Notes: generated by a model not told the origin, from the sequence alone. Numbered from the stretch's first letter, positions 10,187-16,860 are shown. The stretch is DNA of 64,000 nucleotides from an uncultured Acidobacteriaceae bacterium (GCA_963758245.1 CAVWUV010000014.1:127729-191728), one strand, 5' to 3'. Translations and numbers: made by a program.

Positions 10187-10255
10187 ACCGACCCACGACC
10201 GTCAGGGAGCGATGTTCTGTTCTTACCGAGCCGCGACCGTCAGGGAGCGATCTTC
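10187..10255. repeat. 31-bp imperfect direct repeat (two copies, 38-bp period) duplicating the 3' end and stop codon of the GT39 gene
   Basis: 10187-10217 and 10225-10255 match at 28 of 31 positions. The perfect 18-bp core CGACCGTCAGGGAGCGAT lies at 10196-10213 and 10234-10251. Copy 2 contains the last codons and TGA of the minus-strand gene 10240..12057. Confidence 0.8.
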
Positions 10256-12057
10256 CCCACCGGATGATTCGTCATCAAAAACTTGCCCCCGCTTTCGGCA
10301 ACGACGTTCAGATCTGCGCGTTCCACCGCGCTCTCGATTCGCCGCACGCCAGCTTCATCCGCGATGAAATACCATCGCTCCGGCTCGGCCCACAAGCTCT
10401 TGAATTTTGCATCGTCGATAAATACCTTCGGAGCGTTCGGAGCGTAAGACCCATACACCAGGTTCAGAACCCGTCCATTCAAGAGCAACCCGGAACGATC
10501 TGTGTAGAAGAAAATAGACGAGAACGCGTAGTAGTGACGGTCAACAATCAATCCGCCTTCCGGAGATCGCAGCAGTGCATTAGCCAGCGGTCGCGACGAC
10601 AGATAAGGATCGAAGACCACCAGCGCCAGTCGAGCTGCATGAAAGAAAAGCACCATCATCAGCCCCGCTGCCAAGAAAGCTCGCCGGCTCTTTGCGAGAA
10701 TCGTTCCTAAAGCGCCAACCAGAAACGCAACCGCGGCAACGGCGAGAGGCAGGCGAAGGTAAGCAAACGAGCGAAGCGTGAGATCTTCAATGTGCCCCAT
10801 CGACAGCGTGTAGGCTGAGCGGTGCTCTGAGAGCGCACTGGCGATATCACCCGGAGCTGGGACATTTCGCACCAGGAACAAAATCGTTATGGCTGCCAGC
10901 GCTGCGCATCCTGCAATTACCGAAAGCACGCGCGTTCCCCGGCGGACCGCCACTCCACCGGTTGCCATAGCCGAACCTAACAGCAGCGCCAGCGCCGGAT
11001 AACAGGGCATCGAATAGTATTCCTGCGTTGTCGAAAATGTGAAGAACACTAGAACAAAGCCCGTCCAGCAGAGCGCCAACAAACGGGCGCGGCCGGCTCG
11101 GTCGATTGGTTTGAACGAAAGCTTCGCCACGGCCGGAAAGTAAACGCTCCAGGGGAACAGCCATACCAGGTGAAGCAGCCAGAACCAGAGGCGCGGAACT
11201 GTGTTGTAATCCCGCGGGTAACGCAAGTTAAGGAATCGGAGCAGTTGCTCGTTGATGAAGTAGAACCACAAAAATCCGTGATATTCTCCCGGAACGCTGT
11301 GCAAGGTGAAGGCGAAATACGGCGGGTTTCTCAGAGTCGCGAGAACATGCCACGGAGCAGCAATCAGGAGCGCGATCAATAAACCGCTGAAAGGACGCAG
11401 CCGTTTCCAAGTTCTCAAAGAAAAAAGCTGCCTGGTTACAAACAGATAGAGAAGACCGGCGCCTATCGGGAAAACCACCGCGATTAAACTCTTCAGCAGG
11501 AGGCCTGTTCCGAGACTCGCTACCAATACGAACGCCCATGCTCGCGGATGCTGCTCCTGTTCATCCAACGCCCGCAGGAACGCCCACATCGCGAGCGCGA
11601 TTGTGAACGTCAGCATCACGTCGGGAATCAGAATTCGAGTAAACAAAAACAGGCCAACGCACGTTGACATGATTAGACCCGCATAGAACCCGGCCCGCCG
11701 TCCGAAGGCCCAAATGCCGAATACAGCGGTCAGCCAGCAGAGGCCAATTGCCGAGAGAGCCACCGGAATCCGAGCGGCCCAATCGTGTACGCCGAAAAGT
11801 TTGTACGAAATCGCCATCAACCAATAAATAAGGGGCGATTTTTCGAGGTAAATAACGCCGTCGAGCCGCGCGGTTACCCAATCGCCGGAATCGAGCATAG
11901 TTCGTGCGATCTGTGCCTGTACGGCATCGACGTCGTCCATCAGGGAGGGAGGAGAAATGATGCAGCCCAGGTAGATCGCAGCCGCGAACGCGAGAACCGC
12001 CAGATACAGGTACAGGTATCTGCGGGCTATCCCGTGCAGGCGCCCGCCATTCCTCAC
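10240..12057 (-). CDS. GT39/ArnT-PMT family polytopic membrane glycosyltransferase
   Basis: 605 aa with about 12 predicted TM helices. The N-terminal loop carries the acidic DD motif after TM1 (SLMDDVDAVQAQIARTM...EKSPLIYW) typical of the ArnT/PMT_2 family. The C-terminus is a soluble periplasmic domain. Confidence 0.85.
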   Translation of the reverse strand: MRNGGRLHGIARRYLYLYLAVLAFAAAIYLGCIISPPSLMDDVDAVQAQIARTMLDSGDWVTARLDGVIYLEKSPLIYWLMAISYKLFGVHDWAARIPVALSAIGLCWLTAVFGIWAFGRRAGFYAGLIMSTCVGLFLFTRILIPDVMLTFTIALAMWAFLRALDEQEQHPRAWAFVLVASLGTGLLLKSLIAVVFPIGAGLLYLFVTRQLFSLRTWKRLRPFSGLLIALLIAAPWHVLATLRNPPYFAFTLHSVPGEYHGFLWFYFINEQLLRFLNLRYPRDYNTVPRLWFWLLHLVWLFPWSVYFPAVAKLSFKPIDRAGRARLLALCWTGFVLVFFTFSTTQEYYSMPCYPALALLLGSAMATGGVAVRRGTRVLSVIAGCAALAAITILFLVRNVPAPGDIASALSEHRSAYTLSMGHIEDLTLRSFAYLRLPLAVAAVAFLVGALGTILAKSRRAFLAAGLMMVLFFHAARLALVVFDPYLSSRPLANALLRSPEGGLIVDRHYYAFSSIFFYTDRSGLLLNGRVLNLVYGSYAPNAPKVFIDDAKFKSLWAEPERWYFIADEAGVRRIESAVERADLNVVAESGGKFLMTNHPVGKIAP

Positions 12058-12142
12058 GGAAGCTGAACGATTTGTTATATTTCGGTTGGGCGGCGCTGTC
12101 GCCAGGGGGCGGAGGCAGTCAGTTTGAGACGAAAGAGGTTCG

Positions 12143-15129: not shown

Positions 15130-16298
15130 CGCCGGCGTTCGTTAGACGTGTTCCGCCAATCGACCTGCGGAAGAAACATGGATGGATCAATCCGCTCCCG
15201 ATATCTGACCGCGATATTCATGAGGGAATCCAGGAGCGAATCGGAAAGGTAGTGCGGCTCCAGACCCATGTCGATGAGCTTGGAGTGTTTTGCGTTGTAG
15301 TAGTGTTGCTCGAACTCGACGCGAGGATCAGGAAGGTGATCGATATCGACGCTCAACCCAAGTTTTCGCCCTGCCGTTTGCACCAGGCGCGCGATTTCCA
15401 GTACCGAAAACTGCTCTGTGAATTGATTAAACACCCGGCATTCACCGGGCTCGGCGGGATTCGAACACGCGATCTCGATGCATCGCACCGTGTCGCGGAT
15501 GTCCAGGAATCCACGCGTCTGTCCGCCCTTGCCGTACACCGTCAGTGGATGTCCGATGGCTGCCTGAACGCAGAAGCGGTTTAGAACAGTGCCGAACACT
15601 TCGTCGTAATCGAAGCGGTTGATGAGCGCTTCATCATGCGCGACTTCATCGGTCATCGTTCCATATACAACGCCCTGGTTGAGATCGGTGGCCCGCAGTC
15701 CCCAGATCTTGCAGGCGAACATGATGTTGTGGCTGTCGTGAACTTTCGAAAGATGGTAGAACGACCCGGGCTGTTTCGGATAAGGAAGCGTGTCCGTTCG
15801 CCCGTTGTGCTCGATCGTGATGTATCCCTCTTCGATATCGATGTTGGGCGTGCCGTACTCGCCCATCGTGCCGAGTTTGACGAGATGACAATCGGGCTGG
15901 AACTCGCGCAAAGCGAATAGCAGGTTCAGCGTTCCGACGACATTATTTACCTGGGTGAAAACCGCGTGTTTGCGGTCAATCATCGAGTAGGGCGCGGCCC
16001 GTTGCTCAGCAAAATGAATGACTGCGTCTGGCTCGAACGATTCAATGGTTGAGGAGAGGAAATCGTAATCCGTTACGTCACCCACGAAGAGCTCAATCGT
16101 CTTTCCCGTGAGCTCTTGCCAAACCCTCAATCTCTCGGACAGAGGGCGGATGGGCGTGAGTGTTTGCACTCCCAGTTCGTGGTCCCATTGACGGCGCGCA
16201 AAATTGTCAATGATAGCGAGCGAATGACCCTTCGCCGACAGGTATAGTGCCGTTGCCCAACCGCAATAACCGTCTCCTCCAAGCACGCAGATTTTCAT
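14976..16298 (-). CDS. sqdB: UDP-sulfoquinovose synthase
   Basis: From recall, it is colinear with plant SQD1 and cyanobacterial SqdB over about 390 aa. Shared segments include [107 protein letters not shown] and [14 protein letters not shown]. The ORF then continues about 50 aa past the usual C-terminus. Confidence 0.9.
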
Positions 16299-16353
16299 GT
16301 CGAGATGTCTTACGCTCCTAGTTTGATAAGCACACTCGTAACGTCTGACGACA

Positions 16354-16860
16354 TTACTCTGTGCGATGTAACAGCGAAGTGCTGTTTGCGGTCGTCTTTG
16401 CAGAAGAAGTTACTACTGCGGTCCCTAGGAATATTAATAGGGTCCCCAGCCAGCGCTCTAAAGTCACCTGTTCCCGCAGAAAGAATTTACCGAGCAATGT
16501 GGAAAATATGTAGCCCATTGCCGTTAGCGGCAGAACAAAGCTCAAATCCGCCAGGCTCAATAAGGCCATCCTAGTCAGCAGTGCAAGAATCAGCGCCAGA
16601 ATGCCCATTGCCACGTACGGGTTCAGCATCGCTTGCAGATAGAGAAAGGGGTTTATCGAAAGAGCCTGAGAAAAATGCTTCATGCCCCAAGCAAGGGACA
16701 AGTTGCCAAAAGGCCTTAGTACCAGTACGAGCGCCAACAGGCGGTAAGCGCGGATTAACTTGTTGCGGCTTCGCTCCGGCTGACTGATGCCAGCCGGAAA
16801 CAGACTCCCGTCAGATTGTTCTTCAGCCAATAGCTCCATTGTAAACAACGCTTCCTTCAC
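16354..16860 (-). CDS. Small single-EamA-domain (DMT superfamily) 4-TM membrane protein
   Basis: Four hydrophobic helices. The final helix region ([22 protein letters not shown]) is typical of an EamA repeat. The start is uncertain (16860 or 16839). It lies 55 nt upstream of sqdB on the same strand. Confidence 0.65.

Follow-up and report, generated by a model that had tools for sequence, protein, structure and literature searches.

A conserved Terriglobales gene module joins UDP-sulfoquinovose synthase to an HpnI-family glycosyltransferase and may divert sulfoquinovose into an envelope lipid

The window analysed here is a 64,000-nucleotide stretch of DNA from an uncultured Acidobacteriaceae bacterium (GCA_963758245.1, CAVWUV010000014.1:127729-191728). 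It contains a group of six neighbouring ORFs (Table 1), whose coordinates and strands had all been given correctly in a first-pass annotation made from the sequence alone. Three of them form a convergent operon, and the stop/start overlaps described for it are real, at 8 nt and 17 nt.

Table 1. Genes of the sqdB locus, in window coordinates.
Feature	Position	Strand	Basis or remark
ArnT-like GT-C (PMT_2), 605 aa, membrane, predicted periplasmic active site	10240..12057	-	PMT_2 and ArnT matches
Integral-membrane GT2, HpnI/ceramide-glucosyltransferase (GT21) type	12143..13309	+	Candidate sulfoquinovosyltransferase
DAO/glycine-oxidase-fold FAD protein, accessory	13302..14339	+	Pfam DAO match, N-terminus only
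Short GFO/IDH/MocA-like NAD(P) oxidoreductase, accessory	14323..15129	+	GFO_IDH_MocA N-domain, 37.8 bits
sqdB, UDP-sulfoquinovose synthase	14976..16298	-	SQD1 (1qrr) match, active-site motifs; core ~residues 1-384
Small single-domain EamA protein, type 'w', 4 predicted TM helices	16354..16860	-	55 nt upstream of sqdB

The gene that the first-pass annotation had called an unmistakable sqdB does encode a true UDP-sulfoquinovose (UDP-SQ) synthase. Its product matches Arabidopsis thaliana SQD1 (1qrr) at 644.7 bits (E 6e-193), with residues 2-384 aligned to 3-385. The GTMGEYG motif and a second motif of 10 residues are identical to those of SQD1 in the alignment, and we take the two to comprise the SDR catalytic Thr, Tyr and Lys and the SQD1-specific His beside the Tyr. 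The NCBIfam model for UDP-sulfoquinovose synthase (NF041015) is matched over its entire length, 1-384, at 494 bits, which is under the curated equivalog cut-off of 575. Very close homology to SQD1 thus shows, as judged from sequence, that SqdB produces UDP-SQ. Relatives with 79-95% identity are 400-434 aa long. The last ~35-37 codons of the window ORF are a lineage-specific read-through tail, and the ORF shares 154 nt with the convergent GFO-like ORF; both the tail and the overlap exist because the window lacks a segment of ~0.98 kb that its closest relative (locus L003) has.

A canonical partner for this enzyme was not found nearby, as had been claimed. No GT4 (SqdX/SQD2) or GT8 (SqdD) domain occurs in the 40 window ORFs scanned (two ORFs, 60839-62431 and 62451-63953, as well as several of less than about 270 aa, lay outside the scan), and no GT4 or GT8 transferase is among the neighbour families common to at least four of 81 related loci. 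The locus resembles the canonical SQDG pathway (GT4 SqdX/SQD2, or GT8 SqdD with SqdA/SqdC) in having a close homologue of SQD1, but the transferase adjacent to sqdB is an inverting GT2, so that any product would be beta-linked, unlike alpha-SQDG.

This GT2 is of the ceramide-glucosyltransferase/HpnI type, as first proposed. It scores 117.8 bits against Pfam Glyco_transf_21 and 286 bits against the HpnI model TIGR03472, under the equivalog cut-off of 310, with the next family at only 38 bits. The closest solved structure is ceramide glucosyltransferase (GCS; E 1.4e-19, residues 25-378). Paralogues in related loci, 37-46% identical to the window protein, reach 329-379 bits on the HpnI model and pass its cut-off, and true HpnI paralogues adjoin in seven related loci. 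The sqdB-linked GT2s form a monophyletic clade whose sister group consists of acidobacterial HpnIs with a bona fide HpnJ (710 bits) and pairs of EamA genes as neighbours. On sequence grounds, then, the GT2 is a diverged paralogue of HpnI, the enzyme of the HpnI-HpnK-HpnJ pathway that glycosylates a hydroxyl of bacteriohopanetetrol.

Both proteins begin with a TM helix, followed by a GT-A domain and then by TM helices at the C-terminus, and D140/D142 (DxD), D233/D234 and R273/W274 are invariant across the family. The GT2 retains its catalytic Asp and (Q/R)xxRW, a motif typical of hydroxyl-acceptor GT2s. However, the sqdB-linked clade carries substitutions directly beside the catalytic motifs (E182Q, R230-P231, K270 and W349), its neighbour is sqdB instead of hpnJ or hpnK, and its donor would be UDP-SQ as opposed to UDP-GlcNAc. 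It is also coupled to an ArnT-like GT-C, which to our knowledge is not part of known proteobacterial hpn clusters. At positions conserved within both clades, identity between them is 84% in the GT-A domain vs. 92-100% in the membrane parts, which fits a changed donor and a retained acceptor class. A weak predicted model (pLDDT 64) has helices at 2-33 and 264-362, and at this low confidence it matches the synthase-type GT2s PcManGT, BcsA and HAS (TMq 0.53-0.63) better than GtrB and DPMS (0.36-0.40). Fusions to HpnK (YdjC) found elsewhere in the GT2/HpnI family tie that family to hopanoid glycosides. Neither hpnJ, hpnK nor any other hopanoid gene was found in the scanned window ORFs or as a conserved neighbour of related loci, and the hopanoid core genes shc, hpnH and hpnG were likewise not seen in the window or among conserved neighbours.

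The enzyme divergent from the operon had been described as a GT39 protein. Its ArnT-like GT-C nature stands, but it is GT83-like and not a GT39 PMT proper. In Pfam it scores 66.9 bits with PMT_2 and 43.8 bits with PMT, and its only solved relative is ArnT (5ezm, E 2.9e-24). The motifs MDDVD and LEKSP, D146, the R of QLLRF and the Y of EYYSMP align with ArnT D55, E84/K85, D158, R270 and Y345, positions which, from the ArnT structure, we take to be functional sites that include those binding undecaprenyl phosphate. The Zn-binding His residues of ArnT are not retained, and an orthologue of ArnT was rejected as an assignment, given 97 bits against an equivalog cut-off of 567.

The small 4-TM EamA protein upstream of sqdB is present as described, with 28.6 bits against the EamA model (cut-off 28.2) and a weak match to ArnE (E 8e-4). 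Four hydrophobic helices can be seen by inspection of the sequence, while an automated hydropathy scan gave three overlapping segments, and translation probably begins downstream of the GTG at 16860. The protein is a candidate subunit of a lipid-linked-sugar flippase. The window holds one such gene, whereas many relatives have pairs, here called EamA a and b; the window protein is 33-37% identical to these and likewise to the EamA pair from L083, an HpnJ-HpnI cluster. EamA a and b of the sqdB clusters are themselves 46-51% identical to the pair in an HpnJ-HpnI cluster, and fusions of EamA to an HpnI-family GT2 exist (P0244, P0261).

Both oxidoreductases that the first-pass annotation had assigned to the pathway are present, but they are accessory members of the module, each occurring in 11 of the 81 loci. 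The FAD protein (AF2 model, pLDDT 73.5) has glycine oxidase and D-amino-acid oxidase as its best folds, at a TM score of about 0.55, and in 10 of its 11 loci its gene immediately adjoins either the GT2 or the GFO-like gene. In the GFO-like protein only the N-terminal domain is recognised, with weak PDB matches to Gfo/Idh/MocA proteins and biliverdin reductase.

Conservation of this neighbourhood, which the first-pass annotation had named as the thing to check, was assessed in the 81 loci. The trio of GT2, SqdB and GT-C is kept in about 75-90% of species loci through many rearrangements, so that the break-up of the group among relatives, which the first pass had said would refute its reading, is decisively not what is seen. 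Full flanks are available for 56 Terriglobales species loci; within 10 kb of the GT2, sqdB is present in 50 of these, the GT-C in 43 and both in 42. The association is found in at least eight arrangements of gene order and strand across about 80 species, extends to a GT2 relative of only 57% identity, and was recovered in all three look-ups that started from SqdB. By comparison, FAH and HgmA, which flank the group, persist in just 2-4 loci. The window is one variant of a multi-gene module conserved in Terriglobales (subdivision-1 Acidobacteria). At its core are SqdB, the HpnI-family GT2, the ArnT-like GT-C and a set of small EamA proteins; genes for the EamA proteins occur in 50 of 81 loci, frequently as pairs. 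Most relatives add an AsnB-like amidotransferase (44 of 81 loci), a conserved partner absent from the window and overlooked in the first pass. Trio conservation, the EamA partners and the retention of ArnT residues in the GT-C together make it well supported that the sulfoquinovose is destined for something besides plain SQDG made by SqdX or SqdD.

What, then, is the product? We tentatively favour, at somewhat less than even confidence, a module that diverts UDP-SQ into an envelope lipid, the GT2 putting sulfoquinovose straight onto a membrane lipid alcohol, probably bacteriohopanetetrol. The GT2, an inverting, membrane-embedded HpnI paralogue with a remodelled donor pocket, would move sulfoquinovose from UDP-SQ directly onto a membrane-lipid hydroxyl at the cytoplasmic face. 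The likeliest acceptor would be C35 bacteriohopanetetrol, giving an anionic, phosphorus-free beta-sulfoquinovosyl hopanoid; this choice of acceptor we infer from GT2 family membership only, and GT21 enzymes are also known with ceramide or diacylglycerol acceptors. The small EamA protein or proteins would flip the glycolipid to the periplasmic leaflet. There the GT-C, with the AsnB-like enzyme where present, may act on or with the lipid using a polyprenyl-phosphate sugar, and in the window the DAO-fold flavoprotein and GFO-like reductase might add an optional redox modification. Direct transfer is favoured by the conservation of the module, by the family placement, clade-specific residues and modelled fold of the GT2, by the homology between EamA a/b and the EamA pair of an HpnJ-HpnI cluster, by the EamA-HpnI fusions, and by the dispensability of the GT-C, which is gone from the 20-kb region in at least four loci (L055, L056, L058, L062) where GT2, SqdB, AsnB-like protein and EamA remain. 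Against it, the GT-C has no defined role although it is directly beside sqdB on its strand in most loci and keeps the ArnT residues, it is hard to see what the AsnB-like partner would act on in a sulfoquinovosyl hopanoid, and no hopanoid core gene was seen in the window or as a conserved neighbour. A second conserved module that combines an HpnI-like protein with a GT-C, without sqdB, also weighs against it.

That second module suggests that GT2s of this kind could feed GT-Cs in a general partnership, as in the Arn-like, three-component route of the first pass. Here the GT2 would make Und-P-beta-SQ, the EamA proteins would flip it, and the GT-C would transfer sulfoquinovose onto lipid A, LPS core or another envelope acceptor. 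A fixed negative charge would be added, as by RgtE and RgtA-D of Rhizobium, which galacturonosylate LPS. The parts resemble those of Arn (ArnC, ArnE/ArnF, ArnT), GtrA/B/C and Rgt systems: a nucleotide-sugar enzyme, a membrane GT2, small EamA-type proteins, usually paired like ArnE/ArnF, and a GT-C with ArnT as its sole solved relative and the phosphate-binding and catalytic positions conserved. All four functional roles are present and conserved together, in the gene orders met most often the GT-C is the direct same-strand neighbour of sqdB, and the route accounts for more of the gene content than direct transfer does. The Arn-like parts list stood as far as the frequent small EamA partners and the ArnT-like GT-C are concerned, but not for the GT2, for which an ArnC/GtrB/DPM1-type polyprenyl-phosphate transferase was rejected in favour of the HpnI/GCS type. 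Among systems of this sort we know of no characterised polyprenyl-phosphate sugar synthase outside the ArnC/GtrB/DPM1 type, whereas this GT2, of the HpnI/GCS type, keeps the catalytic Asp and (Q/R)xxRW and, in the weak model, fits GtrB and DPMS more poorly. In addition, HpnJ-HpnI hopanoid clusters house both the sister clade of this GT2 and the orthologous EamA pairs, its membrane parts are closer to true HpnIs than its donor domain is, and several otherwise intact loci lack the GT-C. The sulfonated sugar and the additional AsnB-like partner also set the module apart from Arn. We therefore regard loading of a carrier as a serious rival to direct transfer onto a lipid alcohol, if on balance a doubtful one.

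Could the acceptor instead be a glycerolipid? The GT2 would then be a non-canonical, inverting sulfolipid synthase that places beta-linked sulfoquinovose on diacylglycerol or on a glycerol-based lipid of Acidobacteria, for example iso-diabolic-acid glycerides, with the GT-C, AsnB-like and EamA genes only loosely related. Sulfolipids replace phospholipids under phosphate limitation, and a phosphate-sparing, SQDG-like lipid would suit oligotrophic acidic soils. There are precedents in Pgt of Agrobacterium and Mesorhizobium (GT21 family) and in the cyanobacterial GT2 MgdA, all of which glycosylate diacylglycerol, and the lack of a GT4 or GT8 partner near sqdB or among conserved neighbours is in keeping with such a role. 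But the GT2 is specifically HpnI-like, with HpnJ-linked nearest clades, the conserved GT-C, EamA pair and AsnB-like protein are left without explanation, and we found no report in the literature of sulfoquinovose lipids in cultured Acidobacteria. We consider this acceptor improbable. Very improbable, finally, are three separate products, with SqdB feeding an SqdX or SqdD elsewhere for plain SQDG, the GT2 serving as a UDP-GlcNAc HpnI and the GT-C modifying lipid A with another sugar: the absence of sqdX and sqdD covers the scanned window ORFs and conserved neighbours and not the remaining genome, and some synteny must be inherited because all loci come from a single order, but the genes stay together through the rearrangements that FAH and HgmA do not survive, and the sqdB-linked GT2s are a separate clade, under the HpnI cut-off and with remodelled active-site motifs, that coexists with true HpnI paralogues in the same loci.

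Outside SQDG, the only glycoconjugate use of UDP-SQ that we know of is in the N-glycans of Sulfolobus acidocaldarius, which depend on Agl3. That system also combines a lipid-linked intermediate with a GT-C enzyme (AglB). However, it is archaeal, a soluble-face GT attaches the sulfoquinovose to a dolichol-pyrophosphate oligosaccharide, and there is no HpnI-type GT2, EamA pair or ArnT-like enzyme. Subdivision-1 Acidobacteria make bacteriohopanepolyols (BHPs) and have hpnI and hpnJ homologues without hpnK, a pattern that is unexplained (PMC5462960). A search of the literature gave no report of a sulfonated hopanoid, and direct transfer to a lipid and the Arn-like sulfosugar route alike appear to be new to it.

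Taken as a whole, the proposal that soil Acidobacteria make sulfoquinovosyl-bacteriohopanetetrol through an HpnI paralogue, a two-subunit EamA flippase and further processing by the GT-C is possible, and we hold it with caution. If true, this compound would represent a class of sulfonated composite hopanoid not seen before, an anionic lipid that standard positive-mode BHP analyses would have missed. The gene set speaks for a sulfonated envelope lipid or glycoconjugate that has yet to be described, and not for the classical sulfolipid of plants and cyanobacteria.

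All six open reading frames that the first-pass annotation had assigned to this cluster were found again at the same positions (see table). The SqdB part of the cluster is ordinary. Arabidopsis SQD1 (1qrr) aligns with residues 2-384 at 644.7 bits (E 6e-193), and the active-site stretch GTMGEYG and a second one of ten residues are identical in the two proteins; the NCBIfam model NF041015 gives 494 bits, under its cut-off of 575. The + strand operon convergent to sqdB, which encodes a GT2, a flavoprotein and a GFO/IDH/MocA-like (GFO-like) protein, has overlaps of 8 nt and 17 nt. 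sqdB and the GFO-like gene, too, run into each other at their 3′ ends, with 154 nt (14976-15129) in convergent overlap. Compared with the closest relative (L003:4759-5738), the window lacks ~0.98 kb of intergenic DNA, and as a result tails of ~37 aa on SqdB and ~17 aa on the GFO-like protein are encoded antisense to the partner gene. An Rfam search of the window returned no match, and promoter and terminator scans of it stayed at chance level.

Genes of the sqdB cluster and its surroundings, with window coordinates and the number of loci carrying each family (blastp clustering of all ORFs from 80 related loci plus the window, n=81)
Feature	Coordinates	Strand	Assignment	Loci with family
Sugar-oxidation run (GFO/IDH/MocA; SIS; ROK kinase; gluconate 2-dehydrogenase subunit 3-like; GMC oxidoreductase; second GFO protein)	3583-10172			
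GT-C (ArnT-like transferase)	10240-12057	-	PMT_2, 66.9 bits; divergent from GT2 operon	53/81
Membrane GT2	12143-13309	+	Glyco_transf_21, 117.8 bits	76/81
Flavoprotein	13302-14339	+	AF2 model (pLDDT 73.5), glycine oxidase/D-amino-acid oxidase fold	11/81
Short GFO/IDH/MocA-like protein	14323-15129	+	Domain/sequence match	11/81
SqdB, UDP-sulfoquinovose synthase	14976-16298	-	SQD1 alignment	64/81
Small EamA protein	16354-16860	-	EamA, 28.6 bits; 55 nt upstream of sqdB	50/81 (73 genes)
Fumarylacetoacetase and homogentisate-dioxygenase-like cupin (tyrosine catabolism)	16823-19898			
Asparagine-synthase/class-II amidotransferase (AsnB-like, ~641 aa; absent from the window)				44/81
MacB/FtsX-type permease				26/81

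A 10-sequence GT2 alignment, run as query over one genome per species, gave at least 591 relatives of the GT2 in the first 600 pattern matches. Of these, the best 80, in loci that are all MAG-derived, belong to Terriglobales/Acidobacteriota and have GT2 identities of 60-87%. In the 56 loci whose 10-kb flanks are complete, tblastn with the window proteins detected sqdB in 50 and the GT-C in 43, the two occurring together in 42. The co-localisation, whose loss in relatives would have told against the first-pass annotation, is thus strongly conserved. The median gap between GT2 and sqdB is 249 nt. The commonest gene order is GT2+ SqdB- GTC- (27 loci), the window has GTC- GT2+ SqdB-, and GT2+ GTC+ SqdB+, SqdB+ GTC+ GT2+ and SqdB+ GT2+ GTC+ (L169) are among the others seen. 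GT2, SqdB and GT-C remain linked despite this rearrangement, unlike the FAH and HgmA flanks. The trio also occurs at locus L165, whose GT2 is only 57% identical, and in three of three look-ups from SqdB proteins on megabase contigs.

The cluster lies between tyrosine-catabolism genes (FAH, HgmA-like) and sugar oxidoreductase genes, and these flanks are not conserved with it; FAH and HgmA are kept in only 2-4 loci. In the window, 38 nt at the annotated start of the EamA gene are shared with the fumarylacetoacetase ORF, and few relatives (L003, L004, L027, L168 and L169) repeat the tyrosine-catabolism flank. The sugar-oxidation run, just upstream of the GT-C, contains a second GFO protein with a 116-bit match to glycoside 3-dehydrogenase (BT_2158 family); like the other flank, this run is not kept with the sqdB cluster.

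The commonest full layout is GT2+ / SqdB- GTC- AsnB- EamA- EamA-, the AsnB-like gene being mostly an immediate neighbour of the GT-C (e.g. L006:14415-16340). The window is a variant, with an accessory redox pair, a single EamA gene of a type that we call 'w', and no AsnB-like gene in the whole 64 kb searched. The two oxidoreductases had been counted as part of the gene set and do sit in the window operon, but their rarity among the loci marks them as accessory. UDP-galactopyranose mutase was the best sequence match of the flavoprotein (E 0.02, dinucleotide-binding motif only); this identity was rejected because the model fits the glycine oxidase/DAAO fold. A sulfosugar has no carboxylate for amidation, so the substrate of the AsnB-like enzyme is unexplained, and none of the readings weighed below gives a role to this enzyme or to the DAO-fold/GFO-like pair.

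The best family of the GT2 is by a wide margin HpnI (286 bits, cut-off 310), the bacteriohopanetetrol glycosyltransferase, with the next family at 38 bits, and its best solved structure is a ceramide glucosyltransferase matched over residues 25-378, in agreement with the ceramide-glucosyltransferase/HpnI type first proposed. Paralogues at 37-46% identity, of which several lie in the same loci, reach 329-379 bits and so exceed the HpnI cut-off. In a simple neighbour-joining tree, the sqdB-linked GT2s (with the relative P0241) form one clade, sister to an acidobacterial group of HpnJ/EamA-linked HpnI proteins; in the neighbourhood of one relative, P0245, the order is HpnJ (710 bits, cut-off 578), EamA, EamA, HpnI. 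YdjC/HpnK fusions occur in other members of the GT2 family, and many others carry a C-terminal YkoP domain. In P0251 (590 aa, 46% identical to the window GT2), an HpnI-like GT2 is fused to a peptidase M20 (deacylase-type) domain, which might substitute for the HpnK deacetylase reportedly missing from subdivision-1 (SD1) Acidobacteria.

All family-wide catalytic residues (D140/D142, D233/D234 and R273/W274) are kept in the window GT2, and the clade-specific substitutions adjoin them: E182Q, R230-P231 before the DD, K270 in the (Q/R)xxRW motif, and W349. Positions conserved within both clades are identical between them at 84% in the GT-A domain versus 92-100% in the membrane parts, on small numbers, a pattern to be expected if the donor has changed and the acceptor class has not. 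We dropped a charge-based reading of the substitutions because they both add basic residues (R230, K270) and remove one (R349). The AF2 model of the GT2, built on a shallow alignment, is of low confidence (pLDDT 64), so its better match to the synthase-type membrane GT2s PcManGT, BcsA and hyaluronan synthase (TMq 0.53-0.63) than to GtrB or DPMS (0.36-0.40) is weak evidence only.

The small EamA protein had been described as a four-helix ArnE/ArnF-like subunit. Its place upstream of sqdB and its family were confirmed, but the match to ArnE is weak (E 8e-4), and four hydrophobic helices are visible by eye where an automated hydropathy scan gave only three overlapping segments. Most EamA genes of sqdB loci form adjacent pairs of types a (~124 aa) and b (~169 aa), to which the window type 'w' is 33-37% identical; tblastn missed the divergent copies (13 loci only), and the table gives the loci recovered by blastp clustering. 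Types a and b share 46-51% identity with the EamA pair in the HpnJ-HpnI cluster. In the acidobacterial relatives L083:583-4060, L166:2-3392 and L055:5850-9485, the EamA pair is flanked by bona fide HpnJ and HpnI, and L166 has its second EamA and HpnI joined in one protein, beside an HpnJ-like gene. The HpnJ-EamA-EamA-HpnI arrangement suggests an unrecognised two-subunit flippase of hopanoid glycosides.

The only solved relative of the GT-C is ArnT of Cupriavidus (5ezm, E 2.9e-24), so the protein first listed as a GT39 (ArnT/PMT-family) enzyme is ArnT-like (GT83-like) rather than a GT39 PMT. In the alignment to ArnT, the acidic MDDVD of the first loop is kept, and the functional ArnT positions E84/K85, D158, R270 and Y345 have their counterparts in LEKSP, D146, the QLLRF arginine and the EYYSMP tyrosine, respectively; the zinc-binding histidines are not kept. 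With these motifs retained, the GT-C should be an active transferase dependent on a polyprenyl-phosphate sugar. In L167:6104-7856 and L033:4784-6340 the sqdB-adjacent GT-C is split into two ORFs, by either a frameshift (pseudogene) or an assembly error. A metagenome scan with true HpnI paralogues found a second conserved acidobacterial module, which is sqdB-free (L085-L164, e.g. L090:7211-14337 and L114:7474-14540). In it an HpnI-clade GT2 (379 bits) almost always faces a paralogous PMT_2 GT-C in convergent orientation, often with a second GT21 between them, two MacB/FtsX permeases upstream and sometimes a GT4. The combination of HpnI-like with ArnT-like genes thus recurs in Acidobacteria whether or not sqdB is present.

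We tentatively favour a direct glycolipid pathway. The GT2 would be an HpnI paralogue re-tuned for UDP-sulfoquinovose (UDP-SQ) that makes a beta-sulfoquinovosyl lipid, most probably SQ-bacteriohopanetetrol; the EamA proteins would flip this lipid, and the GT-C, with the AsnB-like enzyme, would act after flipping. The acceptor lipid, the substrate pair of the GT-C and the flippase role are conjectural. This reading draws on the family placement of the GT2 and its retained hydroxyl-acceptor catalytic motifs, on the hopanoid context of both the sister clade and the orthologous EamA pair, on the absence of the GT-C from at least four loci (L055, L056, L058 and L062), and on SD1 Acidobacteria reportedly having hpnI and hpnJ homologues and no hpnK (PMC5462960).

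A less probable alternative is the Arn-like carrier route of the first-pass annotation, in which UDP-SQ would yield polyprenyl-P-SQ, to be flipped, after which the GT-C would move the sugar onto lipid A, LPS or some other acceptor. This route explains the tight sqdB-GT-C linkage and the paired EamA genes; the GT2 is HpnI-type rather than ArnC-type and would need a phosphate acceptor, for which we know of no precedent among HpnI-type enzymes. That the GT2 is instead a beta-SQ-glycerolipid synthase seems improbable, and mere co-location of the genes very unlikely.

Besides the HpnI-HpnK-HpnJ synthesis of composite hopanoids, the closest precedents are the three-component Arn/Gtr/Rgt glycosylation systems and the archaeal Agl3 pathway, which brings SQ into N-glycans. 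Unlike HpnI, the window GT2 scores below the family cut-off and is not linked to hpnJ or hpnK; unlike Arn-type systems, the cluster has no ArnC-type GT2; and unlike canonical SQDG synthesis, there is no GT4 or GT8 synthase, as the first reading had it, among the 40 window ORFs scanned (a set that excluded two 500-530-aa ORFs near the window end and some under ~270 aa). The cluster departs in one defining feature from each bacterial family considered, and is assembled from known types of part. A 2026 review of SQ cycling gives the SqdB-SqdX route only (PMC13436972). Literature searches joining sqdB or sulfoquinovose to HpnI, GT2, undecaprenyl, ArnT/LPS, Acidobacteria or bacteriohopane turned up no relevant paper, in line with the earlier view that such an envelope route is undescribed in bacteria, and no description was found of sqdB combined with an HpnI-family GT2, small EamA proteins and an ArnT-like GT-C.

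Sulfoquinovose is regarded as the head group of the phototroph sulfolipid, and Terriglobales are among the most abundant bacteria of soil and peat. If our reading is true, another use of UDP-SQ across Terriglobales would be a heterotrophic soil source of SQ for the sulfur cycle. Cultured Terriglobales strains exist and may permit direct testing if they carry the cluster. The product would be a new anionic, phosphorus-free envelope lipid or LPS decoration, which may bear on acid and metal tolerance, and the pathway could account for hpnI-like genes without hpnK in SD1 Acidobacteria. The small EamA pairs would be candidate flippases of hopanoid glycosides, and the HpnI-like and ArnT-like pairs a recurrent, unstudied acidobacterial module.
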